From a virus (lineage: Duplodnaviria > Heunggongvirae > Uroviricota > Caudoviricetes), in IMG/VR virus record IMGVR_UViG_2565956762_000002, positions 1 through 35,833 of that record: 35,833 nt of DNA, one strand, 5' to 3'. A program made the translations under genes and the position numbers. Positions 1-35,794 of this stretch are shown piece by piece (position 1 is the first letter of the stretch; the number at the start of each line of letters is the position of its first letter). The notes under the pieces were generated by a model. It worked only from the letters and a program-made list of their open reading frames with translations. It had not been told where the DNA came from and did no database searches.

Positions 1-1521
1 TTATTCAGGCTTTAATTTATTGATAATAGAATCTACCATTTTAATGCCTGCCTCATTGACTATGACTGAATTGACTACTCTATCAAAATAGTCTTCTATA
101 TGGTGGGAAAATAGGAAAGCAGCACTTGATGGTTTTTTGTTCTTTTCAACTGCAGATTGCAAGACTTCATGAGGCGGAATTTTAAACCTTTTGCATGATG
201 CAATGAGATATTCAAACTCTTCAAATGATAGACAAAAAATATTCTCTGTAGGGATATGATAGTTATGTTTAAACTTGTCATATATCTTATTCATCTCATC
301 TTTAGCATAAGTATTAGCTAGGATACTACCATTGCCTAAGAAAAGGTTTTTATATGTAATGCAAATGATATATGAGTTAGCCCTGAATGGAGCTATTATT
401 CGCTCATTAGAGTATATTTCTCGATTAACTTCGTGAGATTGTTCGATTGCTTTTAATACCGATTTCTTTATTTTTCCTGCAATATCCTCAGGGCGTAATG
501 TTACCATGCCTTTTTGGTGTATCTCAACGCCTTTAGCATCAATGAAAATATTTGCCTCAGTATGTGGAATGAAATAATCAACTACTTTATTATCTTTAGG
601 TAGTCGTTCTTTAAGGTATTTTTCGTTATGAAAATCAATTTCGCTTTCTTTTAGTATTAATTCCAGTGCATTTTCAAATACATTTCCAAAGCTATCCATG
701 AACTTCTCGGCATCAGTTCTTCTTAAAAGATCATATATGAACGTCTGTATGCTTGTTGAAGTCAGTTGTGTGTGTATCTGAAAATACTCTGAACCTTTTT
801 TTATTAATGGTTTTTCAAGAAAAGGTGATGATGAGTAGTATTCAAGCAAAGGTTTATCATAGGTTTTTGATTTGCAAAATGTAGATAGTTCATTGTAATT
901 TATTGATATTGCATCAAGAAATTTCTCAATGGTATTTCTAGGAATGATGTCAAATAATATAGTAAATGTATCTACATTCATTTTTCTCACGGGATGCTCT
1001 TCTGTTATGTGAGTTATTAATATGTAAGATAGCTTAAGAAAGTCTTCGATAGATACATTCGTGATAGTAAAAAAACTTGTCTTTATTTTATGGTTTTTTT
1101 CAAGTTCTGAAAATAGAAAGACTTGTCTGCTAATTGTGTTTAGAGCGTCAATTTTCTGGTAGATTCCTTGTTGGTATAGATTATTTCTAATGAAGAAATG
1201 CATGCCATTCTTCCTCTCAAGACCGATAGGAATAATGTTCAAGGTTTCATAAGTTTTTTGGAAGAGTTTTATTGCTTGATTTTTATCGAGGATTTTGAAT
1301 TTTTTATTCTTGCCAGTTACTGACGCAGACCACTTTAGACATAAATTAACAATCCAAGGCATGTGTCGTAACATGTGGATATTATCTTCAAATTTTTGTA
1401 AGTTATATTGCATACACAATTCGATAAATAAATCAGGGGAATAACCTTGGATTTCTGAACGAATAGCATCCATTCTTAACTTTGCAACCGCATCAGATTG
1501 AATATCTAATTTTTGAATCAC
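1..1521 (-). CDS. Hypothetical 506-aa protein, integrase-adjacent cargo gene
   Basis: Uninterrupted minus-strand ORF ending with TAA at 1-3. GTG start at 1519-1521 lies 13 nt downstream of the int stop and is preceded by GGAGA (revcomp of 1526-1530), suggesting co-transcription with int. Visibly AT-rich versus the phage backbone. No motif I can assign. Confidence 0.6.
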   Translation of the reverse strand: MIQKLDIQSDAVAKLRMDAIRSEIQGYSPDLFIELCMQYNLQKFEDNIHMLRHMPWIVNLCLKWSASVTGKNKKFKILDKNQAIKLFQKTYETLNIIPIGLERKNGMHFFIRNNLYQQGIYQKIDALNTISRQVFLFSELEKNHKIKTSFFTITNVSIEDFLKLSYILITHITEEHPVRKMNVDTFTILFDIIPRNTIEKFLDAISINYNELSTFCKSKTYDKPLLEYYSSSPFLEKPLIKKGSEYFQIHTQLTSTSIQTFIYDLLRRTDAEKFMDSFGNVFENALELILKESEIDFHNEKYLKERLPKDNKVVDYFIPHTEANIFIDAKGVEIHQKGMVTLRPEDIAGKIKKSVLKAIEQSHEVNREIYSNERIIAPFRANSYIICITYKNLFLGNGSILANTYAKDEMNKIYDKFKHNYHIPTENIFCLSFEEFEYLIASCKRFKIPPHEVLQSAVEKNKKPSSAAFLFSHHIEDYFDRVVNSVIVNEAGIKMVDSIINKLKPE

Positions 1522-1533
1522 AATAGGTCTCCA

Positions 1534-2547
1534 CTACAAATTATAAAGAGGATTTTTAGTCACCGCGTCTTCAAGGTGATCGGGCGAAAAGTGGGCGTAA
1601 ATCATGGTCATTTTTATATCGGCATGACCCAAAATATCACGCAGTACCAGTATGTTTCCGCCGTTCATCATAAAGTGACTGGCGAATGTATGGCGAAGCA
1701 CGTGGGTGCATTGGCCCTCCGGTAGGTCAATACCGGCCCGCTTTACTGCCCGCTCAAAGGCTTTTCTGCATGGCGTGAATAACTTTCCTCTGTTTTTGGG
1801 GAGTTCATCATACAGATCCTGAGATATCGGCACAGTACGGTTTTTCTTGCCTTTTGTTTTTGTATAAGTAATTCGGTATTTCGATATTTGATGGCCCTGC
1901 AGATTTTCGGCTTCACTCCACCGTGCGCCAGTAGCCAGGCATATTTTTGCAATCATTAGTAAGCTAGGGCTTTGAGATTCAGCACATGCCGCCAACAGGC
2001 GCTTGATTTCGTCCGTGGAAAGAAAAGCCAGCTCACCTTCGGCAATTTTGAAGGTCGGAAGTCCTGCCAGCGGGTTTGGTGCTGACCAGTGTCCTAGTTT
2101 TTTTAATGTACCGAACACAGATGATAGATTGCGCTGTTCAAGGTTTACCGTGCGGGGCTTAACGGGCGACATCAGCGTGCCATCTTCATTTCGCACTTCA
2201 CCTTTTAGCCGTGCTTCGCGGTATTTCGTAAAGTCACCGGCAGTCAGCTCTGAAGCGATGGGATCGCCCAGACCATTACAGATAATTCCAAGTTTCGCCA
2301 TGAGTCGCTTGGGGTCTGCGAGTGTTTGACCATACAGGGAATACCACAGCTCAATTAATTCTGATAGGTGTCGCCGATCTTCCTTTTCTCCCAGCCAAGG
2401 TTTCTTGTTTACCTCGTCCATGGTGAAATTCTCAAACGCAATGGCTTCGCCTTTCGTCGCAAATTGTTTGCGTACGCGTTTGCCATCTCGCCCGTTTGGG
2501 TAGCATTCACATAACCACTTTCCGTTCGGCTGTTTTCTGATGGTCAT
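1534..2547 (-). CDS. int: Tyrosine recombinase / phage integrase (P2/186 family)
   Basis: 337-aa ORF with the C-terminal catalytic region typical of tyrosine recombinases (HVLRHTFASHF ... DIKMTMIYAH). Sits divergent from the early operon, adjacent to the repressor, as in P2/186. Confidence 0.92.
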   Translation of the reverse strand: MTIRKQPNGKWLCECYPNGRDGKRVRKQFATKGEAIAFENFTMDEVNKKPWLGEKEDRRHLSELIELWYSLYGQTLADPKRLMAKLGIICNGLGDPIASELTAGDFTKYREARLKGEVRNEDGTLMSPVKPRTVNLEQRNLSSVFGTLKKLGHWSAPNPLAGLPTFKIAEGELAFLSTDEIKRLLAACAESQSPSLLMIAKICLATGARWSEAENLQGHQISKYRITYTKTKGKKNRTVPISQDLYDELPKNRGKLFTPCRKAFERAVKRAGIDLPEGQCTHVLRHTFASHFMMNGGNILVLRDILGHADIKMTMIYAHFSPDHLEDAVTKNPLYNL

Positions 2548-2548
2548 A

Positions 2549-3181
2549 TCAAAGGCTCTTAATGATTTTCAGTGCGCGGCCTATTACCTCAATGTCATCC
2601 AGTTCGCACTCAAACGATGAATCATCCTGATGCACTACTAATCTGTTTCCCGGGAGTCGTGTCAATTTTACAATGCTTTTTATCCCGTCGATGTCCACTA
2701 ACCACGTACCATTTACTGGTGGTGTTTGGTTGCGATCTATTAAATAAGAATCACCAGAAGTAGTCACCAGCAGCAGGTTGCTTGAGTCTGAGGGGAGTAT
2801 GCTGCTATCAATGATTGCTTTTCCAGCATCGATCAGCAAACCTCCGTTGAGAGTTGCCTTGTCAATTTCAGGAGATACAAGCTCCGAAAGAGGTTTAACT
2901 TTGCTAGAGTTCACGGAATTGATATTTTTTTTAGGGTCAATGTTTGAACCTGGATCGCCCTGTCCGGTAGTTAGCCACAGTAAAGAAACTCCTGTTTCCA
3001 AAGCGCACTGAATCACCCATTCTGCAGGAAAACTATCTCTTAAGTATCTGTTTGCCATAGTGCTTTTTGATGCGCCCAAGTGATCGCAAAGTTGCTGTCT
3101 GGACTTGAAATCATAGGCTGCCATTAGCCTATGGATAGCCTCTCTTCCCCCTGTATTCTCGCCAGCTTTTACTTGTATCAT
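2549..3181 (-). CDS. cI: Immunity repressor, 186 CI-like
   Basis: 210-aa ORF between int and the divergent early operon. Motifs recalled from 186 CI (NRYLR ... CALETG ... LWLTTGQG ... GTWLVDIDG ... LTRLPG ... FECELDDIEVIGR). Confidence 0.85.
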   Translation of the reverse strand: MIQVKAGENTGGREAIHRLMAAYDFKSRQQLCDHLGASKSTMANRYLRDSFPAEWVIQCALETGVSLLWLTTGQGDPGSNIDPKKNINSVNSSKVKPLSELVSPEIDKATLNGGLLIDAGKAIIDSSILPSDSSNLLLVTTSGDSYLIDRNQTPPVNGTWLVDIDGIKSIVKLTRLPGNRLVVHQDDSSFECELDDIEVIGRALKIIKSL

Positions 3182-8397: not shown

Positions 8398-8489
8398 TTA
8401 CGCGGGTTAACAATTCGTGCTCTTAATAATACCAGGCATATCAGGCTGATGAACGTAAAAAAACGTTTTACATCAGTAAGATTATTATA

Positions 8490-8509
8490 TACTGTAAATA
8501 TAAACAGTG
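8490..8509. promoter_or_regulatory. LexA (SOS) box
   Basis: TACTGTAAATATAAACAGTG matches the CTGT-N8-ACAG consensus exactly; located upstream of the small ORF and DinI-like gene. Confidence 0.6.
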
Positions 8510-8550
8510 GCTATGCATACAGTGTTGCTTGTGGTGTCATAGGAGGAAAG

Positions 8551-8739
8551 ATGCAGGACTATTTTTTGGAGTCTTTGAAGCTCCAGCGCATTGATTTTTT
8601 TCTTAAGCTTGTAGCGGCTAGTGAGTGTAGTGATGAAGAGAAGGGGCTGGCTTTGCAGTGGGTTTCTGAACTGACAGATGAACTCATGGCAAAAATCAGA
8701 ACTCACGAATACAACCGCTCAATGGATGTCATCAGCTGA
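8551..8739 (+). CDS. Small hypothetical protein, possible Tum-like antirepressor N-terminal part
   Basis: ATG at 8551 preceded by strong RBS AGGAGG; 62 aa; immediately downstream of the LexA box. Confidence 0.5.
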   Translation: MQDYFLESLKLQRIDFFLKLVAASECSDEEKGLALQWVSELTDELMAKIRTHEYNRSMDVIS

Positions 8740-8749
8740 GGTGACTTTT

Positions 8750-8983
8750 ATGCGCATTGAAATAATGATCGATAAAGAGCAGAAGATTAGCCAGTCTACC
8801 CTGGACGCCCTTGAATCCGAGCTTTACCGCAATCTGCGCCCCCTGTATCCCAAGACGGCGATCCGCATTCGCAAAGGCAGTGCCAACGGTATCGAGTTGA
8901 CCGGCTTAAAACTTGATGAGGATAAGCAGCGGGTAATGGAAATTATGCAGAAGGTGTGGGAAGACGACAGCTGGCTGCATTAA
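8750..8983 (+). CDS. DinI-family protein
   Basis: MRIEIMIDK ... QRVMEIMQKVWEDDSWL resembles DinI; the frame is open upstream to 8678, overlapping the preceding ORF. Confidence 0.75.
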   Translation: MRIEIMIDKEQKISQSTLDALESELYRNLRPLYPKTAIRIRKGSANGIELTGLKLDEDKQRVMEIMQKVWEDDSWLH

Positions 8984-9117
8984 GAAACGTTGCTGGCGTC
9001 TGAACTTGTTTCTGGCGTCAGCAAGGTTGAACAACGAGCCCTTGCGAGGCGTTAGCTCTGTAGTGCATGTCTATGCTGCATGAGATCGCATGATCGTTTG
9101 AGGATCGTTTTTGCTAA

Positions 9118-9143
9118 GGCCCGCCAGAACTGGTGGGCTTTTG
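9118..9143 (+). terminator. Rho-independent terminator of the early operon
   Basis: GGCCCGCCAG-AA-CTGGTGGGC hairpin followed by TTTT. Confidence 0.5.
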
Positions 9144-9187
9144 CGTAGATCATGCAGGTGCATGAAAACCACTACATAAAGCGGGCA

Positions 9188-9206
9188 GGCGTGGCGGGGA
9201 TACGAG
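9188..9206. other. Candidate cos (cohesive-end) sequence
   Basis: GC-rich 19-mer GGCGTGGCGGGGATACGAG resembling the 186/P2 cohesive-end sequence as I recall it (GGCGTGGCGGGGAAAGCAT), about 13-15 of 19 positions. Confidence 0.35.
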
Positions 9207-9292
9207 CGCGCGCTTAGCCATGAATCTGTGGACTTGATGGTGAAGCTAAGGTAATTTGTATCAAAAAAAGCAGTACAATAGGGATATATAGA

Positions 9293-10372
9293 GTGGCGTT
9301 ATCAGATGCGTTAATTACAGTAAATCAAGCCGAACGGGGCGGTGAAAACGCGTTGAGAGGCTTTTCATATCAAGCCTCTTGGGGGATAAATTATTTACTT
9401 GAGAAACAAAAAGAAAAGGAGAAATATTTATTTCTATTTGAATATCATGACGATATTCTTGTATTGAATTCATCTGTTTCTCCGACTAGTGCTGAGTTTA
9501 TCCAAGTTAAAACAAAAAAAGATGGTAAATGGACACTCGCAGCAATAGTGAACGCAACAAAAGCTAAACCTAAATCATTTGTTGCAAAACTATATGACCA
9601 TTTCTATCAATTCGTTGGTCACGAAATTTATATGGTTCTGTTATCGAATGCTGGATTCGATTTCTTAAATGATAATAACGAAAAAGGTAGTGATCTTAAT
9701 AATGAGCATAAGGAAATTATAATTAGTAAGGTTCAAGAGCAGCTAAATACTAAAAAAGAAGTTCCTCTTGATAAAATAAAATTTAAAACATCTGATCTTA
9801 GTTTGTTAGATCCTAACTCACATTTATACGGGAAAGTTGCAGTTTTTTTGAATTCTTACTTTGGGGATGATCATGGTATTAATTCAACAGCATTCACTAA
9901 ATTATTAATCAATAAATGTAATGAGAAGGTTAGTGTTGCTTCTAGTGATATCAAAACTTTTGAAGATTTAGTACTAAAGAAAGGTATATCTTCAGAATTT
10001 GTAACTGATTTATTATCTGGACTCATTGCAAGCATAAAAATAACGCCAAAATGGGAACAGGTTTGTATGTTGCTTGGTACTTTCTCAGATCCTTATGAGG
10101 GGATTAAATTACAATCAGTTTTTACACGCATATCAATAAAAGTGCTCAATGTCAATTCAATATACTATCTTTATTTTCTGGAATTTCAATCGGCTCTAAA
10201 GATTATAGAGCATTATCGTGAGATACCTGTTCGAGACCTCTTCTTTACACTCGAAAAAACAATTGCAGCGGGGGGCGGGGATTTCTCTTTATTAAATCAA
10301 GAAGAGAAATTTATGATTGCTATATATGCAATTATAAAGTTGACTTTTGAGGATGTTTCTTATGAAGAATAA
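9293..10372 (+). CDS. Candidate defense effector: predicted PD-(D/E)xK-like (Cap4/DUF4297-like) nuclease
   Basis: 359-aa ORF with GTG start at 9293 in an AT-rich island. N-terminal motifs RGFSYQASW ... EYHDDILVL ... EFIQVKTKK resemble a restriction-endonuclease-like D...(E/Q)xK core. Confidence 0.7.
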   Translation: MALSDALITVNQAERGGENALRGFSYQASWGINYLLEKQKEKEKYLFLFEYHDDILVLNSSVSPTSAEFIQVKTKKDGKWTLAAIVNATKAKPKSFVAKLYDHFYQFVGHEIYMVLLSNAGFDFLNDNNEKGSDLNNEHKEIIISKVQEQLNTKKEVPLDKIKFKTSDLSLLDPNSHLYGKVAVFLNSYFGDDHGINSTAFTKLLINKCNEKVSVASSDIKTFEDLVLKKGISSEFVTDLLSGLIASIKITPKWEQVCMLLGTFSDPYEGIKLQSVFTRISIKVLNVNSIYYLYFLEFQSALKIIEHYREIPVRDLFFTLEKTIAAGGGDFSLLNQEEKFMIAIYAIIKLTFEDVSYEE

Positions 10373-12020
10373 CGTTAAATTTAAAAATATAAAAATACTC
10401 TCATTAAGAGACAGAAAAGCTTTTTCTTATGAGTTTTCAGAAGGGGTTAACTTCATATATGGTACAAATGATGTTGGTAAATCAAGCCTGATTAAAAGTC
10501 TTTATTACACATTAGGTGGAGATTTAAGGCTTGATGATGCTTGGAAATCAGATGATATAGTTACACTGGTGGAAATTAATAACGGGGAAAATGATTTTAT
10601 TTTTTTACGTTATAAAAAGATTATTGGTGTCTTTGATTTGAAGAATGATGATCTAGTCGTGTATAACACGATTTCGTCATTAGCATCTCGTGTTTCAAAT
10701 ATATTTGGTTTTAAACTGGAATTACATAATAAATATACGGGTGCTACGACTCAGGCAAACCCTGCTTGTTTGTTTGCCCCATTCTTTATTGATCAGGATG
10801 AAGGATGGAAAGCGGTGATAAATTCTTTCGAAAACATGAGTATGTACTCAGAATGGCAAAAAAACATTCTTTACTATCACTCTGGAATTAAGCCAAAGGA
10901 ATATTATACAGTTCAAGGGAAAATCAAAGAAATTAAAGTTAAAATTTCAGAGTTAGATGGTTTTGTTAAGGTTCTAAAAAGAAGCAAAAGTAAGATTGAT
11001 GAATCTTTTGGCGTGGTTTTATTTGATGTTGATTTGGATTTTTATAAATCAAAGTTGGAACGTATATTAAATGAATATTCTAATTTGAATTTAGTTCAGA
11101 CAGAATATAGATTGAATCTTTTGAGGTTATATTCTAGGAAGAATTTCCTTGAGAGTGAACTCAAAGAGATAACTGCGATTATTGATAATGAATTTGAGAT
11201 TTCGAATTTTCGAGATGATAATGTTGCTTATTCAGTAAATGAATATAATTATATAAACCATAGAGATGAAATGCTCAAAAACATTGCTGTTCTTGCAGAT
11301 GAGAAAAGCAAGATTGAGGAAAATATTCCTAAATTGAATCAAAAGCTAGAAGAGTCAAGGGCTGCTTCAGAGGCGTTGCAGGCGCTGATTTTAGAAACTC
11401 AATCGGAAATAACGCTTCATGATGTTATTAAATCTGCTGCATACCATGAAATTGAATCTACTTTTATTTCACAGTTAGATGAGTTATTCGTTGAGATTGG
11501 TCGAAAAGAAGGCGAGTTGACAGAGTTACAAGAAGAATTAGAAGTATACAATGATAAGAAAAGAACTGTTAAAATAAATGACTGTTTCAAAGAGTATTTC
11601 GCTAAAGCTCTTAAAGAGCTTGGTGTCGAAAATACAAAGGTAGGTGGCCTTAGTAGTTATAATAATATTACTAAGGGCAAGACTGGTAGTCGAGGTCCTC
11701 GAGGTATATTTGCATTTCACTACGCGCTGCTTAGTGTTATGAAAAGCAACGCTTCAGTTGAGAATATGCCTATAGTAATAGACTCTCCAAAGCAACAAGA
11801 TTTGGATCCAGAGCATACGCATAAGCTTATAAAACTATGCTTGGATGGGTTTTCCCTTACAAATCAGATTATTATTGGAACTGTTGGTTATGAGAGTTTC
11901 ATGGATGGTTTTAATAGCATCAAACTTGAAAATAAATATCATCTTTTAAATGATGAACATTATGATAATGTTTATTCTCAATTAATGCCATTGTTTGAAC
12001 GGGTGATACTTTCAAGATGA
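10362..12020 (+). CDS. Candidate defense partner: SMC/Rad50-like ABC ATPase with long coiled-coil
   Basis: ATG at 10362 overlaps the upstream stop (ATGAAGAATAA); GAGGA lies upstream. N-terminal P-loop GTNDVGKSS, about 250 aa of heptad-rich coiled-coil, and a C-terminal head with MPIVIDSPKQQDLDPEHTH. Confidence 0.75.
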   Translation: MKNNVKFKNIKILSLRDRKAFSYEFSEGVNFIYGTNDVGKSSLIKSLYYTLGGDLRLDDAWKSDDIVTLVEINNGENDFIFLRYKKIIGVFDLKNDDLVVYNTISSLASRVSNIFGFKLELHNKYTGATTQANPACLFAPFFIDQDEGWKAVINSFENMSMYSEWQKNILYYHSGIKPKEYYTVQGKIKEIKVKISELDGFVKVLKRSKSKIDESFGVVLFDVDLDFYKSKLERILNEYSNLNLVQTEYRLNLLRLYSRKNFLESELKEITAIIDNEFEISNFRDDNVAYSVNEYNYINHRDEMLKNIAVLADEKSKIEENIPKLNQKLEESRAASEALQALILETQSEITLHDVIKSAAYHEIESTFISQLDELFVEIGRKEGELTELQEELEVYNDKKRTVKINDCFKEYFAKALKELGVENTKVGGLSSYNNITKGKTGSRGPRGIFAFHYALLSVMKSNASVENMPIVIDSPKQQDLDPEHTHKLIKLCLDGFSLTNQIIIGTVGYESFMDGFNSIKLENKYHLLNDEHYDNVYSQLMPLFERVILSR

Positions 12021-12026
12021 AAATAT

Positions 12027-12044
12027 GGCCTCAGAAATGAGGCC
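12027..12044. terminator. Bidirectional terminator hairpin between convergent genes
   Basis: Perfect hairpin GGCCTCA-GAAA-TGAGGCC between the cassette ATPase (+) and portal Q (-). Confidence 0.55.
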
Positions 12045-12060
12045 GACTAAATTATCTTAA

Positions 12061-13095
12061 TTAAATTTTTAGTTCGTAGGTTGAAAAATTTATAATTCTA
12101 TCGTTTAACCAATTATTTATTTCTAGAAACATTTTTTGTAGAGGCAGTAGCTCATTTCGTACAAATACTGTGCTTGCCTTTTCGATATCCCCAAACCCCC
12201 CGACATTATTAGGCATTATCCCCATCATTTGTGGCGGCACACGATGCGCCGCCATCATGTCGTCCCGGCTCACGTTCTTGATGTTTAAAAACTCATCCTT
12301 CGCCGCCACTTCTGACAACGGGATAATCTGAAGCCCGTCCTTTTTACCGTTAGGCGAGTACATAAACAGGTTACGGAAGTTACCAGGACCTTTGGCGCTT
12401 TTCATCGCATTGCGGAGGTTGTTCACATCCTCCTGGTTCTGCGCAGCATCGGTCATGTACATGATGAAGCCTGCATGACTGCCGTTAATGTAATACTTGC
12501 GGCGGAACAGCGTGGCGGACTCGTTGAGCAGAGCTGACGGAATGGCAGAAAGATAACCGGGCAGGCCGTAGATCTCCTGGTTAATGTCCGGTTCCATCAG
12601 ATGAAAAATGCTGCCTTTCGTGAACTGATACGGCTGGGTTGTCATACCGTATTGCACAAACCAGTAGGTATCCAGGTCTAACCCGCGTCGGGTGTATTTT
12701 GCCAGTGCAGGCTCAAGGGCGATAACTTCACCGAAGCGGTTCGTGCGTTTCTCCAGGTAGGCGTTACCAAAAACCAGATAGTCCTGCACAAAACGCGAAA
12801 AAGCCTGCTGGCTGAGCAGCGGGTGAGGGATGTAGGTGCTGGTCAGAATGTTGCACTTCACTGCAATCGGTGAGCTGTGATGCACGGCGGCGCGGAAGGT
12901 TCGCGCCAGTCCGTCGAAACTCACAGGCGGCTCATACCAACGATCCATCTGTACGCATTCCACATAGTCCAGCAGTTCGCGGCGGTCCAGAACAGGAACG
13001 GGATCACCGAAGCTGAATGCTTCGGCTGAAGTCTGGCTTTTATGCTGGATCTGTTTCGTCGACGCAGCGCGGTTCTTCTTACTCTTTCCCATCAA
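12061..13095 (-). CDS. Q: Portal protein (P2 gpQ family)
   Basis: 344 aa, same length as P2 Q; divergent from O-N-M as in P2. Confidence 0.92.
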   Translation of the reverse strand: MMGKSKKNRAASTKQIQHKSQTSAEAFSFGDPVPVLDRRELLDYVECVQMDRWYEPPVSFDGLARTFRAAVHHSSPIAVKCNILTSTYIPHPLLSQQAFSRFVQDYLVFGNAYLEKRTNRFGEVIALEPALAKYTRRGLDLDTYWFVQYGMTTQPYQFTKGSIFHLMEPDINQEIYGLPGYLSAIPSALLNESATLFRRKYYINGSHAGFIMYMTDAAQNQEDVNNLRNAMKSAKGPGNFRNLFMYSPNGKKDGLQIIPLSEVAAKDEFLNIKNVSRDDMMAAHRVPPQMMGIMPNNVGGFGDIEKASTVFVRNELLPLQKMFLEINNWLNDRIINFSTYELKI

Positions 13096-15850: not shown

Positions 15851-16909
15851 ATGAAGAAGAATACCCGCTTTGCTTTTAACGCTTACCTGCAGCAGCTGGC
15901 GCGTCTGAACGGTGTGGCAGTTGAAGAACTGTCCAGCAAGTTCACCGTAGAGCCGTCTGTGCAGCAGACGCTGGAAGACCAGATCCAGCAGTCCGCCGCT
16001 TTCCTGACGCTGATTAACGTCACGCCAGTGACTGAGCAGTCCGGTCAGCTGCTGGGGTTGGGTGTTGGTAGCACCATTGCCGGAACCACTGACACCACCG
16101 CGAAAGAGCGTGAACCTGTCGATCCTACGCTGATGGTCGATGTGGAATACAAATGCGAGCAGACCAACTTTGACACGGTACTGACCTACGCGAAGCTGGA
16201 CCTGTGGGCGAAGTTTCAGGATTTCCAGGTGCGTATCCGTGACGCCATCGTGAAACGTCAGGCACTGGACCGCATCATGATCGGCTTTAACGGCGTGAAG
16301 CGTGCGAAAACCTCCAACCGCAGCGAAAACCCGCTGCTGCAGGATGTGAACAAAGGCTGGCTGCAGAAAATCCGTGAGGATGCACCGGATCACGTCATGG
16401 GCAGCACCACCACGGGTGGTGAAACCACACCGGGTGCGGTGAAAGTCGGTAAAGGTGGCGAATATGCCAACCTGGACGCCGTGGTGATGGATGCCGTTAA
16501 TGAGCTTATCGACGTGGTCTACCAGGACGATGACGATCTGGTGGTGATTTGCGGTCGTGAACTGCTGTCTGACAAGTATTTCCCGCTGGTCAACAAAGAG
16601 CAGGAAAACAGTGAAAAACTGGCAGCCGATATGATTATCAGTCAGAAACGCATGGGCGGTCTGCAGGCCGTGCGTGCGCCGTTCTTCCCGCCGAATGCGC
16701 TGCTGATCACCCGTCTGGATAACCTGTCCATCTACTGGCAGGAAGACACCCGCCGCCGTTCAGTTATCGACAACCCGAAACGTGACCGGATTGAAAACTT
16801 TGAATCTGTTAACGAAGCCTATGTGGTTGAGGACTACCGCTGCGCCGCACTGGTGGAAAACATCCAGATTGGCGATTTCAGCGCCGCCGCAGCAGAAGCC
16901 GGAGCGTAA
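15851..16909 (+). CDS. N: Major capsid protein (P2 gpN family)
   Basis: 352 aa; FKFNAYL, GFNGVKRA and QKRMG motifs recalled from P2 N. Confidence 0.92.
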   Translation: MKKNTRFAFNAYLQQLARLNGVAVEELSSKFTVEPSVQQTLEDQIQQSAAFLTLINVTPVTEQSGQLLGLGVGSTIAGTTDTTAKEREPVDPTLMVDVEYKCEQTNFDTVLTYAKLDLWAKFQDFQVRIRDAIVKRQALDRIMIGFNGVKRAKTSNRSENPLLQDVNKGWLQKIREDAPDHVMGSTTTGGETTPGAVKVGKGGEYANLDAVVMDAVNELIDVVYQDDDDLVVICGRELLSDKYFPLVNKEQENSEKLAADMIISQKRMGGLQAVRAPFFPPNALLITRLDNLSIYWQEDTRRRSVIDNPKRDRIENFESVNEAYVVEDYRCAALVENIQIGDFSAAAAEAGA

Positions 16910-23301: not shown

Positions 23302-24704
23302 GCACAAAATTTTATACCCTGCTGACGGATATTGGCGCGGCGAAACTTGCCAGCGCCGCCGCGCTCGGTGTGCCGCTAAAAATTACCCATATGGCGGTCG
23401 GCGATGGCGGCGGAGTATTGCCAACGCCAGACTCAAAGCAGACTGCACTGGTAAATGAGAAACGCCGGGCTGCGCTGAATATGCTCTATATCGACCCGCA
23501 GAACAGCAGTCAGATTATTGCCGAACAGGTGATCCCTGAAAACGAGGGCGGTTGGTGGATACGTGAAGTGGGCTTGTTTGATGAGTCCGGGGCATTGATT
23601 GCCGTGGGCAACTGCCCGGAAAGCTATAAGCCGCAACTGGCTGAAGGTAGCGGGCGCACTCAGACCGTGCGCATGGTGCTGATTACCAGCAGCACGGACA
23701 ATATCACCCTGAAAATCGACCCTGCTGTAGTGCTGGCAACCCGCAAGTATGTGGATGACAAGGCACTGGAGCTGAAGGTGTACGCGGATGATCAGATGGC
23801 AAAACATCTTGCCGCACCGGACCCGCATTCACAGTATGCACCCAAAGAAAGTCCGACGTTTACCGGGACACCCAAAGCGCCAACGCCAGCAGCAGGGAAT
23901 AACACCACGCAGATTGCGACCACCGAGTTTGTTCAGGCGGCTCTGACGGCTCTTATTAATGGTGCGCCAGCCACGCTGGACACGCTGAAAGAAATAGCCG
24001 CAGCCATTAACAATGATCCGAAATTCAGTACCACCATTAACAATGCGCTGGCACTGAAAGCGCCGCTGTCGAGTCCGACACTCACCGGAACGCCAACCGC
24101 ACCTACTGCGGCACAGTCGGTCAACAATACACAAATTGCCACCACGGCATTTGTGAAATCGGCGATTGCGGCAATGGTGGGGTCTGCACCTGCGGCACTG
24201 GATACACTGAACGAACTGGCGGCGGCGCTGGGGAATGACCCGAACTTTGCCACGACAATGCTTAATGCACTGGCAGGTAAACAACCGCTGGACAATACGC
24301 TGACTAATTTGAGTGGAAAGGATGTAACTGGTCTTCTCACATACCTTGGTTTAGGAGAAGCGGCGAAAAGGGATGTGGGCACAGGAGATAATCAGATACC
24401 GGATATGGGAGCATTCGCTTCTGGTTCGGGATGGTTCAGGCTACCAGGTGGATATATTGTTCAGTTTGGCACTTTTTCAGGAAACACGACCCGCTTTATC
24501 AGTGGACACTTCCCTATACCATTCCCTAATCAGCCGATGGTTTCAGTCAGTGTTATGTCTGATGCCGTTCAGTCAGACCCGTCGAATCCTGCCCCGCAGG
24601 TTTTGTCTGTAAATTTTGAACATATCAGTAATTCAGCGTGGCGTGTGGCAACCAGTGATATCTCACAGCAATACAGATTCAGTTATATTTCGATAGGACG
24701 GTAG
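23298..24704 (+). CDS. H: Tail fibre protein H (currently expressed C-terminal variant)
   Basis: 468 aa; N-terminus matches P2 H as recalled (MSxKF ... MAVGDGGG ... ESYKPxLAEGSGR). The C-terminal about 120 aa lies inside the invertible segment. Confidence 0.88.
   Translation: MSTKFYTLLTDIGAAKLASAAALGVPLKITHMAVGDGGGVLPTPDSKQTALVNEKRRAALNMLYIDPQNSSQIIAEQVIPENEGGWWIREVGLFDESGALIAVGNCPESYKPQLAEGSGRTQTVRMVLITSSTDNITLKIDPAVVLATRKYVDDKALELKVYADDQMAKHLAAPDPHSQYAPKESPTFTGTPKAPTPAAGNNTTQIATTEFVQAALTALINGAPATLDTLKEIAAAINNDPKFSTTINNALALKAPLSSPTLTGTPTAPTAAQSVNNTQIATTAFVKSAIAAMVGSAPAALDTLNELAAALGNDPNFATTMLNALAGKQPLDNTLTNLSGKDVTGLLTYLGLGEAAKRDVGTGDNQIPDMGAFASGSGWFRLPGGYIVQFGTFSGNTTRFISGHFPIPFPNQPMVSVSVMSDAVQSDPSNPAPQVLSVNFEHISNSAWRVATSDISQQYRFSYISIGR
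24334..24359. other. Invertase crossover site (left), Hin/Gin/Cin-type
   Basis: TTCTCACATACCTTGGTTTAGGAGAA; it is the inverted repeat of the site at 26210-26235 and resembles hix/gix sites. Confidence 0.6.
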
Positions 24705-24706
24705 AA

Positions 24707-25147
24707 ATGCAGAAATATATTTTCAGTGCCGATAAAAATGCGTTTTTCCCTGTGGAGCTTAAAATCGCTTATCAGGAATCCGGCGAATGGCCCGATGATG
24801 GAATCGAAATTGACGACACTGTTGCCGCCGAATTTATGAAGGAAGCACCAGAAGGAAAATACAGATGTGTCATCGACGGAATGCCTGCATGGATTGATAT
24901 TCCACCGCCGACTCATGAGGAACAAATTGCCGCAGCCGAACTGGAAAAGCAGCAATTGATTAATCAGGTCAACGAATACATAAACAGTAAGCAATGGCCT
25001 GGTAAAGCAGCGATTGGTCGCCTGAAAGGTGAGGAACTGGCGCAATATAATTTGTGGCTGGATTATCTGGACGCACTGGAACTGGTTGATTCCTCCAGTG
25101 CTCCAGATATTGAATGGCCTACGCCTCCGGCAGTTCAGGCCAGATGA
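24707..25147 (+). CDS. G: Tail fibre assembly chaperone (G, expressed orientation)
   Basis: 146 aa directly after H; Tfa-like C-terminus. Confidence 0.8.
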   Translation: MQKYIFSADKNAFFPVELKIAYQESGEWPDDGIEIDDTVAAEFMKEAPEGKYRCVIDGMPAWIDIPPPTHEEQIAAAELEKQQLINQVNEYINSKQWPGKAAIGRLKGEELAQYNLWLDYLDALELVDSSSAPDIEWPTPPAVQAR

Positions 25148-25721
25148 CATCCGGTGCGGTGCTGGTATCTGTTGCCGTCACCGCGTCAATGTAATCCAGC
25201 ACGGCGTTAAGTCGGGTTGTTTCTGCCTGCGTCAGCTTCCGCCCGGCCCGTAATTTCAGTTGAATCAGACTGATGGAAGCCATTGCTGCATCAATCAGTG
25301 ACTGGCGCTGTGCTTCTGCCGCTTCTACTGCGGCGCTATGCTGTGCCTCAGTATCCGTCACCCATTTCTCACCATCCCATTTATCATATGGCGTTAACGG
25401 GGCGATAGTGGTTGTATTTTCAGGGTAATCACCCGGAGCTGTGATTTCTTTCGATTCTCCTGTTTCGGTGCTATAGATGATTTCACCGCGATGGTCTGGT
25501 ACATATTCCCATGAGTTACAATCTGCAGAACGGCAGATTGCATAACCAGCTTTATGTGTAACTGGTGCATCTAAACAAGAACATGCCGGGATACCGACGC
25601 CAACGGCAAGATATTCTGTTGATGATGAAATGTATTCCCGTGTCGTGTTGTCATAGTTATAGACGGTAATATCACCCGCTACTGTGGCAATAAATTCACT
25701 GTTTAATTTTGCCTGTGTCAT
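25119..25721 (-). CDS. Alternative tail fibre assembly chaperone (silent orientation)
   Basis: 200 aa on the minus strand, converging on G with a 29-bp overlap; Tfa-like C-terminus (LDYIDAVTATDTSTAPDVIWPELP). Confidence 0.75.
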   Translation of the reverse strand: MTQAKLNSEFIATVAGDITVYNYDNTTREYISSSTEYLAVGVGIPACSCLDAPVTHKAGYAICRSADCNSWEYVPDHRGEIIYSTETGESKEITAPGDYPENTTTIAPLTPYDKWDGEKWVTDTEAQHSAAVEAAEAQRQSLIDAAMASISLIQLKLRAGRKLTQAETTRLNAVLDYIDAVTATDTSTAPDVIWPELPEA

Positions 25722-26235
25722 TATGCAGCCCTCACGATGTAGTTAAATGCAATGTTGCGCGGGCGGGTTTCAGTGCTAATATTCGCTGCATTGTCAGAAG
25801 CAACCCCACGAGTGCTGATAGCTCTTACTGCTGAAGGTAGGCTTTGAGGCTCCCGGTCAGTATAGGCAATCCCCCCATCCCCTCCAGTTACTAGCGGACC
25901 ATAATTCCCGGTCTGACCAATAGTTGACGATGTTGTATTTGAACCTGTCCAGAACTCTTGGTTATGTGAGTGGTCTCTGAGTGAATGGCCTTGAGATGAA
26001 AGCAGCGCACGCCCGTTGTCGATACCACGACTATCATCCCATCCACGGATAAACTCACCGCGTAAATCAGGTAATTTATTTGTTGGATAAGCCTTTGCCA
26101 GTTCCGGGTATTCTTCAGCAGAAAATGCCGCACCGTTGCATTTCAGCCAGCCTGTTGGCGGTGTGGCTGAAGGCCATGGAACAGGCACACCAACAGGTAA
26201 TGCAGAGCCTTCTCCCAAACCAACGTTTATGAAAA
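25721..26235 (-). CDS. Alternative tail-fibre C-terminal segment (promoterless, P2 H-type ending)
   Basis: Minus-strand ORF ending NIAFNYIVRAA, as in P2 H; begins at the right crossover site (LGEG ... PVPWPS) and would fuse to the H constant region after inversion. Confidence 0.65.
26210..26235. other. Invertase crossover site (right)
   Basis: TTCTCCCAAACCAACGTTTATGAAAA; about 20 of 26 positions match the reverse complement of 24334-24359. Confidence 0.6.
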
Positions 26236-26290
26236 TGCAGAGATAATGGCTAACTGGCATCATCCACGGTTTTTATTCAGGGGATTGATC

Positions 26291-26857
26291 ATGCTTATTG
26301 GCTATGTACGCGTGTCAACAAATGACCAGAACACCGATTTGCAACGTAATGCACTGAACTGCGCGGGATGTGAGCGGATTTTTGAGGATAAAATCAGTGG
26401 CACTAAGTCCGACAGACCGGGGCTTAAAAAACTGCTCAGGACACTATCGGCAGGAGACACTCTGGTTGTCTGGAAGCTGGACAGGTTGGGGCGCAGTATG
26501 CGGCATCTTGTTACACTGATAGAAGAGTTGCGTCAGCGTGGCGTGAATTTCCGAAGCCTGACTGACAGTATTGATACCAGCACCCCAATGGGCCGTTTCT
26601 TTTTTCATGTCATGGGGGTCCTGGCTGAAATGGAACGCGAACTGATAGTTGAACGTACCATGGCAGGGCTGGCTGCAGCTCGTGCCAAAGGCAGAGTAGG
26701 TGGACGCCGTCCTAAGTTGACCACCGAACAGTGGGCACAGATTGGGCGTTTACTCGAGGCCGGAGAATCAAGACAGCGTATTGCACTGATTTTTGATGTA
26801 GGCGTTTCTACCATTTATAGAAAATTTCCGGCAAATAAGAGCAATGAATCCCCCTGA
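26291..26857 (+). CDS. Serine DNA invertase (Hin/Gin/Cin/Pin family)
   Basis: MLIGYVRVSTNDQNTDLQ with catalytic Ser and a C-terminal HTH; start at ATG 26291. Confidence 0.9.
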   Translation: MLIGYVRVSTNDQNTDLQRNALNCAGCERIFEDKISGTKSDRPGLKKLLRTLSAGDTLVVWKLDRLGRSMRHLVTLIEELRQRGVNFRSLTDSIDTSTPMGRFFFHVMGVLAEMERELIVERTMAGLAAARAKGRVGGRRPKLTTEQWAQIGRLLEAGESRQRIALIFDVGVSTIYRKFPANKSNESP

Positions 26858-33837: not shown

Positions 33838-33927
33838 TTCTTCGCAATGGAGAACTTTTAAGTTTTCAAAATGGAATAATGCGGTATCATTATTGTGAAT
33901 TTAGCAAAAATGGGGAGAACTCGAAAA

Positions 33928-34146
33928 ATGATGATTTGCCCACTGTGTGGAAGTGCCGCCCATACTCGCAGCAGTTTTCAGGTATCTTCATTGACCAAAG
34001 AGCGTTACAACCAGTGCCAGAACATTAACTGCAGCCATACTTTTGTTACCCATGAAACTTTTGTTCGTTCGATTGCAACGCCAAAAGAGTCAAATCCGGT
34101 TCAGCCGCATCCTCATAAATTTAAACAGGTGGGTTTGCCGATTTAA
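33928..34146 (+). CDS. ogr: Ogr/Delta zinc-finger late-gene activator
   Basis: MMICPLCGSAAHTRSS ... ERYNQCQNINCSHTF is the Ogr C2C2 zinc finger; start placed at 33928 rather than the upstream in-frame ATGs. Confidence 0.85.
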   Translation: MMICPLCGSAAHTRSSFQVSSLTKERYNQCQNINCSHTFVTHETFVRSIATPKESNPVQPHPHKFKQVGLPI

Positions 34147-34209
34147 ATGGCGACATAACTACATGATTTAAAACTATACTTTTCTATAAGTTGAGGTTAA
34201 ATTAACAAT

Positions 34210-34388
34210 GCCTGACGTTAGCGGGGATTTATCCCCACTCCGTAGATATGTAGTTTGTCGCTTTGCGACTGCGGACCGATTACCTGATTGCCATGTAATC
34301 GGACGCCGACTTGTTAAGCTTTCTGGGCTAACTGGTTGTTATTTTTTATTTAGTTAGGGCCATGCGCTTGCGCTAAGAGACGTCAGGT
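34210..34388 (+). ncRNA. Candidate structured non-coding RNA upstream of the RT (retron msr/msd-like or DRT-type)
   Basis: 8-bp inverted repeat CCTGACGT (34211-34218) / ACGTCAGG (34380-34387) flanks about 160 nt with hairpins at 34223-34236, 34257-34269 and 34276-34302 (8-bp stem CCGATTAC/GTAATCGG). Confidence 0.25.
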
Positions 34389-34407
34389 ATCTATGGAGGA
34401 ACAAGTT

Positions 34408-34581
34408 ATGGATACAAACGAACTTGGCTTAGTTAAGGCGCGTGTTGAACTGATCACCGCTATGCTCAAATGCGCAACCGCGTTTGTTGGCTTAGTTGGT
34501 GCGGTTTACGCCGTTCTTAACATGGCCTTCAACTACAACAATTTAACTCATGACAATAGAAGTTCAAAGGTGGGAAGATAA
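34408..34581 (+). CDS. Small single-TM protein (57 aa), possible RT-associated effector
   Basis: ATG at 34408 preceded by GGAGG at 8 nt; hydrophobic segment ATAFVGLVGAVYAVLNMAF; the 3' end overlaps the RT start. Confidence 0.4.
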   Translation: MDTNELGLVKARVELITAMLKCATAFVGLVGAVYAVLNMAFNYNNLTHDNRSSKVGR

Positions 34582-35323
34582 ATTTGAGATTAAGCCCGGG
34601 GTTTGGGTTTATGTCCCAAGCGTTGAGGCACGTAAAGTCGGAGGGAAGATACTTCAGGCTGTCAGAAACAAGTGGATTCCGCCACTCTATTTTTACCATC
34701 TAAGAACTGGTGGGCATCTTAAAGCTGCCAGATTACACTTAAAAAGTGATTTTTTTGCCGTTGTTGATATTAAACATTTTTTTCAGTCAACGAGCCGTAG
34801 TCGTATCACCCGTGATCTAAAGAGCTACTTCACCTATTCTCAAGCGCGGGAAATCTCAACATTTTCAACTGTAAGAAACTTGTCCCATAGTCCACATAAG
34901 CATGTCCTCCCTTTTGGTTTTGTTCAATCTCCAATACTTGCAACCCTCTGCTTAGATAAAAGTTATTTTGGTAGCTTACTACGCCGATTGAACAAACATC
35001 ATGATCTCAAGCTAAGTGTGTTTATGGATGATGTGATCATCTCGTCAAACGATTTGGCCCAATTACAAGCGGCTTACGACGAAGCACTAGTGGCAATGCG
35101 TAAATCTGGTTATCAAGCCAACATGAGTAAAACTCAGGCACCATCGTCAAAGATTAGCGTGTTTAATTTAACTTTGAGTAAGGGAGTTATGAAAGTCACA
35201 TCTCAGAAAATGAGTGACTTCCTGATTGATTTCTATTCAAGCAATTATGAGCCGCACAGAATAGGGGTCAAAAACTACGTCGAAGCTGTTAATCCAGGGC
35301 AAGCGAAACTCTTTAAGTTGTAA
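34550..35323 (+). CDS. Compact reverse transcriptase (257 aa)
   Basis: RT motifs in order: RKVGGKIL, VVDIKHFFQS, PFGFVQSPILATLCL, FMDDVIISS (YxDD-like), then SKT and KVTS. Confidence 0.75.
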   Translation: MTIEVQRWEDKFEIKPGVWVYVPSVEARKVGGKILQAVRNKWIPPLYFYHLRTGGHLKAARLHLKSDFFAVVDIKHFFQSTSRSRITRDLKSYFTYSQAREISTFSTVRNLSHSPHKHVLPFGFVQSPILATLCLDKSYFGSLLRRLNKHHDLKLSVFMDDVIISSNDLAQLQAAYDEALVAMRKSGYQANMSKTQAPSSKISVFNLTLSKGVMKVTSQKMSDFLIDFYSSNYEPHRIGVKNYVEAVNPGQAKLFKL

Positions 35324-35397
35324 TTGCGATCGCATGTAGTAGCAACTGGGCTTGACTGAATGCCTGCCGCCATTTTGCCGCCACTACCAAAGAAAAA

Positions 35398-35421
35398 GGG
35401 GCTACGCTTTCACGTAGCCCC
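35398..35421. terminator. Hairpin terminator downstream of ssrA (also terminates the RT transcript)
   Basis: GGGGCTACG-CTTTCA-CGTAGCCCC flanked by T-runs on both strands. Confidence 0.6.
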
Positions 35422-35431
35422 TTGATTTATT

Positions 35432-35794
35432 TGGTGGAGCTGGCGGGAGTTGAACCCGCGTCCGAAATTCCTACATCCTCGGTACTACATGCTTAGTCAG
35501 TCTTTACATTCGCTTGCCAGCTGCGGACGGACACGCCACTAACAAACTAGCCTGATTAAGTTTTAACGCTTCAACCCCAGGCAGGGCTTCCACGCGATCT
35601 CTTTTGGGTTTGACCTCTCTTGATCCCCGTCCTAAGAGCGGAGGCTAGGGAGAGAGGGCTCTAAGCAGGTTATTAAGCTGCTAAAGCGTAGTTTTCGTCG
35701 TTTGCGACTATTTTTTGCGGCTTTTTACGAGGCCAACCGCCCCTCGGCATGCACCTTGGGTTTCGCAAATCCCGTCGAATCCAGAATCAGCCCC
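35432..35794 (-). ncRNA. ssrA: tmRNA (SsrA), 363 nt
   Basis: Minus strand reads GGGGCTGATTCTGGATTCGACGGG ... GGACGCGGGTTCAACTCCCGCCAGCTCCACCA, the enterobacterial ssrA 5' and 3' ends as recalled; length 363 nt. Confidence 0.95.

Follow-up and report, generated by a model that had tools for sequence, protein, structure and literature searches.

The window, as we call the whole 35,833-nt stretch of viral DNA that was analysed, begins with a gene that very probably encodes a single-protein anti-phage nuclease of the previously described GapS1 (GAPS1) family; the gene lies in a known cargo slot between the integrase gene and the attachment site of a prophage. Our analysis itself establishes that the product belongs to this family, what its catalytic motif and fold are, where the slot lies and how variable it is. 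The features at this end of the window are:

Positions 1-1521, minus strand: gapS1 coding sequence, 506 aa, with its stop at 1-3 and a GTG start at 1519-1521 (open reading frame list, NF047931, PHROG 14259, RefSeq).
Positions 1522-1533, minus strand: 12-nt spacer between int and gapS1, carrying the Shine-Dalgarno sequence GGAGA (1528-1532), 6 nt 5' of the GTG (read from the sequence).
Positions 1534-2547, minus strand: int, a P2/186-type tyrosine integrase gene directly upstream of gapS1 (open reading frame; RefSeq 'site-specific integrase').
Positions 2549-3181, minus strand: 186-type CI repressor gene, with which the presumed cI-int-gapS1 lysogenic operon begins (open reading frame; RefSeq 'phage repressor protein CI').

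Assignment to the family comes from several resources. The NCBIfam model NF047931, 'antiphage_GapS1', matches the protein with a score of 429 bits, above its cutoff of 320 (E 2e-128), with residues 20-474 covering model positions 1-455 of 455. A 99.9% identical E. coli gene (NZ_CP067399) is named gapS1 in RefSeq, its product a 'GapS1 family protein' (WP_000615103.1), and an identical Klebsiella protein carries the GapS1 name in UniRef. The protein also matches PHROG 14259 (E 5e-165), a family that is unnamed, and near-identical sequences (99.9-100%) occur in many E. coli and Klebsiella genomes. Searching 1.84 billion cluster representatives with a profile returned 1568 relatives (639 at E <= 1e-30), nearly all about 500 aa long and with one full-length match each. 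Family members are stand-alone single-gene systems whose product is about 500 aa long and has its nuclease in the C-terminal half, which is what we found here (506 aa; core ~270-390), and a partner gene would not fit because the cargo occupies the whole slot from int to the attP arm. The carrier is an ssrA-bounded 186/Fels-2-like prophage rather than an island marked by the GmtY/Z/X trio, a distinction that concerns the carrier only and has no bearing on membership of the family. PADLOC gave no GapS1 match for the window protein, as expected of a 2023 library that predates the family's addition elsewhere, and the available part of the supplements of Mahata et al. (bioRxiv 10.1101/2023.03.28.534373) does not contain WP_000615103. 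Three other candidate matches were rejected: Pfam TPD (E 0.027, 14.7 bits against a cutoff of 27), a PADLOC TIR 'Effector' (E 0.042, no stretch passing) and an NCBIfam Maf-like family (14 bits against a cutoff of 273). An earlier note on this DNA had guessed at superinfection exclusion or abortive infection, and this proved apt: GapS1 is a validated defence family in which activation leads to growth arrest, as in abortive infection.

The catalytic residues belong to a PD-(D/E)xK nuclease domain and are encoded at two places within the gene:

Positions 532-579, minus strand: codons of the PD-(D/E)xK catalytic core, D315 at 577-579, D328 at 538-540 and K330 at 532-534.
Positions 673-675, minus strand: codon of the helix glutamate E283 (from the alignment of relatives).

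Where the earlier note had recognised no motif, a clear one is present, and the core has the alpha-beta-beta-beta-alpha-beta order of the superfamily, in which strand 2 bears the aspartate and strand 3 the (D/E)xK residues. Aligning 20 relatives showed no variation at E283, D315, D328, K330 and E333. Among 118 distant representatives (20-39% identity), conservation is 100% at D315, K330, P238 and Q361 and 94% at E283, and residue 328 is D or E without exception. The window protein (VVD315...IFID328AK330GVE) shares its 15-residue spacing from D to K and its IFIDAKGVE strand with Vibrio GAPS1 over the stretch compared, which was translated from mutagenesis primers (KVVD313FLHQRNGTSIFIDAK328GVE). 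Several non-catalytic residues, namely R112, Q117, Q118, Q122, P238 and Q361, are also conserved family-wide, down to 20% identity; the first four form a motif, RNxxYQQxxYQ, in the N-terminal domain (residues 112-122).

A confident AlphaFold model of the product comprises a helical part (residues ~1-260) and a nuclease core (~270-390). Its structural matches are N.BspD6I (9.0), the small subunit of R.BspD6I (8.2), HindIII, Bse634I, FokI and the nuclease part of Avs3, with Can2, Shedu and LmuA as further Foldseek matches; the model resembles restriction-endonuclease folds. Since type II/IIS restriction enzymes and nickases (BspD6I, HindIII, Bse634I, FokI) are the top matches, and the prophage also has a gene for a DNA adenine methylase, one might see in gapS1 an orphan restriction or nicking enzyme that cuts unmodified DNA, perhaps with the phage Dam methylase and with no triggered sensing. 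We regard this as very unlikely. Dam is a conserved backbone gene of these phages, there with or without gapS1, and a profile search of PDB sequences detected no similarity to any solved restriction enzyme. That search returned nothing meaningful for the product (PilX, NSE1 and DivIVA at E > 0.1), and no solved GapS1 structure was found among the PDB sequences. The GapS1 model, by contrast, is matched over its full length and above cutoff, the characterised GapS1 members are capsid-activated and cause dormancy, and GapS1 expression was tolerated by the E. coli hosts studied (bioRxiv 10.1101/2023.03.28.534373).

The gene for this GapS1 nuclease is intact and sharply set off from its neighbour. 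The TAG stop of int is followed by TGGAGACCTATT and then by GTG, which begins at the 13th base past the stop; GC content is 0.31 in gapS1 against 0.48 in int, with the shift located at the int stop. The earlier description of an AT-rich 506-aa gene with a GTG start and a GGAGA ribosome-binding site right after int agrees with our reading in its coordinates, its 31% GC and the 12-nt spacer. The same description called the gene translationally coupled to int, of which the adjacency stands but the coupling is overstated, given the 12-nt gap and the gene's own Shine-Dalgarno sequence. RNA across the junction forms no stable hairpin (z = +0.9 against shuffles). Sequence comparison makes the long form of the protein, from the GTG, likely, because the 16 N-terminal residues ahead of Met17 are kept in relatives of 58% identity, whose ATG sits at the equivalent position, and because the 77%-identical allele has the same layout (TGGAGA-N6-GTG), likewise with a GTG start. 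A tested homologue cloned from the Met17 equivalent retained activity (Mahata et al., bioRxiv 10.1101/2023.03.28.534373).

A gene at the very edge of a prophage, with so strongly deviant a composition, could also be a decaying or non-functional remnant that is tolerated there. That is extremely unlikely. A frame of 506 open codons would arise by chance with P ~9e-19, the expected open run being ~13 codons at the gene's own base composition, and dN/dS against the 77%-identical allele is ~0.07, with dS near saturation in that pair. This is the single usable value, because dS is saturated in all but the closest allele pair. Invariant catalytic residues, copies 99.9-100% identical in many genomes and the confident structural model argue in the same direction.

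The prophage that carries gapS1 is a 186/Fels-2-like member of the Peduoviridae, with the gene order cI, int, an Apl/Cox-like gene, cII, fil, Dam, gpA and P2-type late genes; its major capsid gene is at 15851-16909. Twelve Klebsiella phage records (Kp4845-2 and others, 35,561 bp each) match the window at 100% identity, and the window's int DNA is 81-87% identical to that of Fels-2, RE-2010 and Cartapus. In the relatives, Int matches Pfam Int_N and Phage_integrase, and CI matches Phage_CI_repr and Phage_CI_C. The opposite end of the element is also in the window:

Positions 35365-35794, minus strand: other prophage end, with two TGCCGCCA arm-type-like repeats (35365-35383), a terminator hairpin (35393-35421) and an intact ssrA (35432-35794).

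ARAGORN and Rfam both detected the intact ssrA tmRNA, and the hairpin, which the phage supplies, has a folding energy of -22.2 kcal/mol (z = -5.8). The repeats, the hairpin and the intact ssrA at the far end place the integration of the element in ssrA. On the gapS1 side the att site falls outside the window, which starts exactly at the gapS1 stop codon, and we therefore located it in relatives. In E. coli NZ_CP067399 (99.9% identical; locus L001), ~130 nt lead from the gapS1 stop to a 45-nt copy of the ssrA 3' end, and the Klebsiella phage record OK490395 (100% identical) begins 132 nt past that stop. ARAGORN found neither a tRNA nor a tmRNA beside gapS1 in locus L001, because just the last ~45 nt of ssrA are present there. 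Aligning the region from int to att in six phages and prophages showed that the ~115 nt adjoining the ssrA-derived core are conserved in all, with or without cargo. This conserved attP arm ends in two TGCCGCCA repeats, which resemble the arm-type consensus of 186 Int, and the stop codon of the cargo abuts the arm. Paired TGCCGCCA repeats are present in each attP arm (L001 5873-6000; window 35365-35421). The phage brings the last 45-48 nt of ssrA together with a strong hairpin, which becomes the ssrA terminator once the element is integrated.

What lies between int and this arm differs from one prophage to the next. Four other GapS1 alleles (77%, 58%, 51% and 49% identity) all sit directly past int in a cI-int-X arrangement, and all enterobacterial relatives examined occupy this slot in 186/Fels-2-like prophages in ssrA; a 31%-identical Photobacterium homologue lies outside that arrangement, in a defence-island-like context. 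The slot is empty in P2 and Fels-2, holds just a 48-aa ORF on the int strand in SEN8, and contains unrelated genes in gapS1's place in RE-2010, Cartapus and many other relatives. Homology to prophages with other cargo breaks at the int stop. The slot exists in type phage 186 as well, since Orf69 (83 aa, 14 nt past int; L017 1658-1909, NC_001317 21157-21408) sits in the annotated lysogenic operon. The earlier statement that P2 and 186 lack a gene between int and att thus holds for P2 and fails for 186. Its conclusion that gapS1 is att-proximal cargo is borne out by the absence of the gene from Fels-2, SEN8 and P2 and by its replacement with unrelated genes in relatives.

We gauged this variability by collecting 160 loci with related integrases and seeking an ORF that starts near the int stop, all counts being given without dereplication. 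In 73 IMG/VR contigs, int is at least 90% identical and is followed by 400 nt or more of sequence; 52 of them contain an ORF of 150 aa or more that begins from -30 to +120 nt of the int stop, and 18 have none. GapS1 accounts for 8 of the 52. Across both collections, 69 complete ORFs starting -30 to +40 nt of the int stop fall into 20 unrelated protein clusters. Occupants include an OLD-family nuclease, PDC-S49 (KAP NTPase), PDC-S15 (FRG domain), TIR and dCTP-deaminase-like proteins. The gapS1 locus thus has the position, the variable occupancy and the defence occupants of the int-att defence hotspot, described as a minor hotspot of P2 that holds 3% of P2 defence systems (bioRxiv 10.64898/2026.02.27.708500). 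GAPS1 goes unmentioned in that preprint's text and in the available part of its supplements. The two commonest slot clusters hold proteins that are 395-424 aa long at 22 loci and 327-380 aa long at 18 loci, and neither has a match in Pfam, PADLOC or NCBIfam. Their location makes both families candidate uncharacterised defence genes. A Cartapus gene of similar size is annotated 'putative RES protein'. Example loci of the slot families are:

L020, 7022-8296.
L022, 7014-8045.
L003, 204-1409.
L002, 4729-5985.
IMG/VR loci L102 and L106.

Such turnover also bears on whether gapS1 might serve the prophage's own cycle, as a nuclease aiding integration, excision or replication. Its nuclease fold, its shared strand with int and the 12-nt spacer would suit such a role, yet Fels-2, SEN8 and P2 manage without a comparable gene, and relatives with an int at least 90% identical have many unrelated proteins or nothing in the slot. 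Distant GapS1 homologues are found outside P2-like prophages, for example in Photobacterium, and a GC content of 31% against 48% marks gapS1 as foreign. We accordingly give a role in the prophage cycle hardly any credence and favour a defence gene carried as cargo.

How this cargo is expressed can be judged from anatomy and from phage 186. In the 186 annotation, the lysogenic operon (pL/pE, cI, int) extends across this slot as far as a predicted terminator on the other side of attP. With the cargo reaching from the int stop to the attP arm, no separate non-coding space is left for a cargo promoter or terminator. At the 20 junctions compared, the cargo begins anywhere from 29 nt of overlap with int to 25 nt past the int stop, although the largest overlaps may overstate the true start, since the junction script takes the longest ORF. 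Scanning for consensus promoters yielded 13 sites against 10.5 expected, no excess over chance and no promoter signal for gapS1. A transcript leaving gapS1 in the prophage state would cross attL and then reach a strong host hairpin terminator, a hairpin in the host DNA past attL (L001 5670-5695, minus strand) that has -17.4 kcal/mol when folded separately and was missed by the terminator scan. Most likely, gapS1 is the last gene of the lysogenic cI-int operon and co-transcribed with it, a reading well supported by the anatomy and by the analogy with 186. The earlier suggestion of expression from the lysogenic int transcript is likewise favoured by the anatomy, namely the 12-nt spacer, the junction free of a hairpin and the cargo that abuts the arm.

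The operon position might further act as a self-tolerance device, with gapS1 made while the prophage is silent and shut off at induction. Production limited to lysogeny would follow from reliance on the cI-int transcript in a gene that appears to lack separate non-coding space for signals of its own. We consider this possible but rather doubtful. If true, a phage with an HK97-fold capsid could bear a capsid-sensing suicide nuclease and have its own progeny spared, and the presence of many unrelated toxic effectors in one slot would be explained.

Work on relatives suggests how the protein could act. GAPS1 of Vibrio parahaemolyticus guards E. coli against several coliphages; its PD-(D/E)xK domain is required in that the D313A and K328A mutants are both inactive, T7 escape mutants map to capsid gene 10, and co-expression with T7 Gp10 leads to dormancy (Mahata et al., bioRxiv 10.1101/2023.03.28.534373). 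In the same study, three E. coli homologues, 24-29% identical to Vibrio GAPS1, protect; deletion of the native homologue sensitised ZH142-A, and growth arrest was seen in E. coli ZH142-A too. A 2025 meeting report describes a K. pneumoniae GAPS1 as protective against many phages. By analogy with the Vibrio and E. coli members, the gapS1 product would be sensor and effector in a single polypeptide, inactive in the lysogen, with the N-terminal helical part (~1-260) as the putative sensor. A component of an infecting phage would switch the nuclease on, which for Vibrio GAPS1 is the T7 major capsid protein. The activated nuclease (E283, D315, D328-x-K330) would then stop the infected cell from growing, and the phage that had entered it would fail. 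Throughout, gapS1 would be a passenger of the int-att slot, as last gene of the cI-int operon. For this allele we infer the trigger, the nucleic-acid target, growth arrest and co-transcription, and its trigger may differ from that of Vibrio GAPS1, since the E. coli homologues are just 24-29% identical to the latter.

The prophage holds cargo at two further places:

Positions 9293-12020, plus strand: two-gene Lamassu system in the gpA-portal hotspot (GC 0.30-0.33).
Positions 34195-35323, plus strand: retron-like cassette between ogr and the attR arm.

The Lamassu genes encode LmuA (359 aa; PADLOC PDLC00243, E 2e-142; Pfam Cap4_nuclease) and LmuB (557 aa; PADLOC PDLC00255, E 2e-253). In a 2026 survey of INPHARED, 'GAPS1 + Lamassu-Fam (n=12)' is one of the most frequent pairings of defence systems in phage genomes; these 12 records are most likely the window's phage, because their number equals that of the identical Klebsiella records and Lamassu is present. 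Ahead of Lamassu and just past the replication gene lies a DinI-like gene (8678-8983, plus strand; Pfam DinI, E 2.5e-24). The retron-like cassette begins with a non-coding stretch (34208-34390) closed by the inverted repeat ATGCCTGACGT/ACGTCAGGTAT and with a minimum free energy of -67.7 against -52.3 for shuffled sequence (z -3.7). A 62-aa ORF (34393-34581) has a hydrophobic stretch resembling a single membrane helix, and the reverse transcriptase (34550-35323), at 257 aa, is unusually short; RefSeq names it 'reverse transcriptase domain-containing protein'. The enzyme stays under the NCBIfam retron cutoffs and the cassette has no Rfam hit. Found in 33 of 5426 E. coli genomes, the cassette may be an unclassified retron type.

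The E. coli NZ_CP067399 prophage (1100500-1130500), whose cI-int-gapS1 module is 99.9% identical, has other cargo at the remaining two slots. Compared with window positions 8400-12100 and 33840-35430, a 671-aa AAA ATPase replaces Lamassu and a 160-aa hypothetical protein replaces the reverse transcriptase cassette. Evidently, the three cargo modules are exchanged independently of one another and move between Klebsiella and E. coli. The E. coli prophage also has an IS66 in the tail-fibre region. In the window, a serine invertase gene (26246-26857, plus strand; Pfam Resolvase and HTH_7) adjoins minus-strand ORFs (24683-26263) after the tail-fibre gene; the ORFs at this place in the E. coli relative, also on the minus strand, are gp53-like and hypothetical. 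The region 24683-26857 resembles the invertible tail-fibre segments of Gin/Cin/Pin systems.

As a discovery, gapS1 itself has little value: RefSeq already names GapS1, the family is experimentally validated and the int-att slot is published. The context that we add is that the enterobacterial GapS1 clade, including two clusters with tested homologues, rides the cI-int operon of ssrA-integrating 186/Fels-2-like prophages, a passenger context that goes unstated in the paper on the Gamma-Mobile-Trio (GMT) islands (bioRxiv 10.1101/2023.03.28.534373). The two abundant unrecognised slot families are better leads than GapS1.

Among the closest known systems is the type member, Vibrio GAPS1 (WP_005477165.1, VPaI-6), which like the window protein is a single protein of ~500 aa with a PD-(D/E)xK core. 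It resides on a Gamma-Mobile-Trio island, whereas the window's gapS1 is in a P2/186-like prophage, and overall identity is low. Nearer relatives are the clusters of WP_152927281.1 and EJP5250929.1, which share the cI-int-gapS1 position in 186-like prophages and whose tested homologues block coliphages; these two are alleles different from the window's, and WP_152927281.1 was cloned from the Met17-equivalent start. The cloned WP_152927281.1 shows no difference from the P0004 cluster over the part compared, its first 126 aa. Full-length identity of this cluster to the window protein is 77%, and the figure for WP_152927281.1 itself rests on the cluster. EJP5250929.1 is P0063 and belongs to the P0017 cluster, for which the corresponding full-length value is 58%. 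In the Klebsiella prophage ST437-OXA245phi4.1 (NC_049448), also of the Peduoviridae, gp49 is a GapS1 homologue directly past int, which Phold called GAPS1-like (10.1101/2025.08.05.668817). Identity is 49%, the prophage belongs to a different genus (Gegevirus), and where the window has its 12-nt spacer, the gp49 start and the int stop share 4 nt (ATGA).

Upx (PMC13099982, PMC13601566; PDB 9wuf) is likewise a single-protein PD-(D/E)xK defence nuclease and senses phage terminase or gp16. With 1212 aa and two nuclease domains it differs from the 506-aa, single-core window protein, and membership of the Upx family was ruled out by 11% identity in a structural alignment, no sequence-level match and no PADLOC Upx hit. 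For the slot itself, the parallel is the old/tin cargo region between gpA and the portal gene of P2-like phages (Rousset 2022, PMC9122126), a hypervariable defence slot of the same kind as the one that gapS1 occupies beside int.
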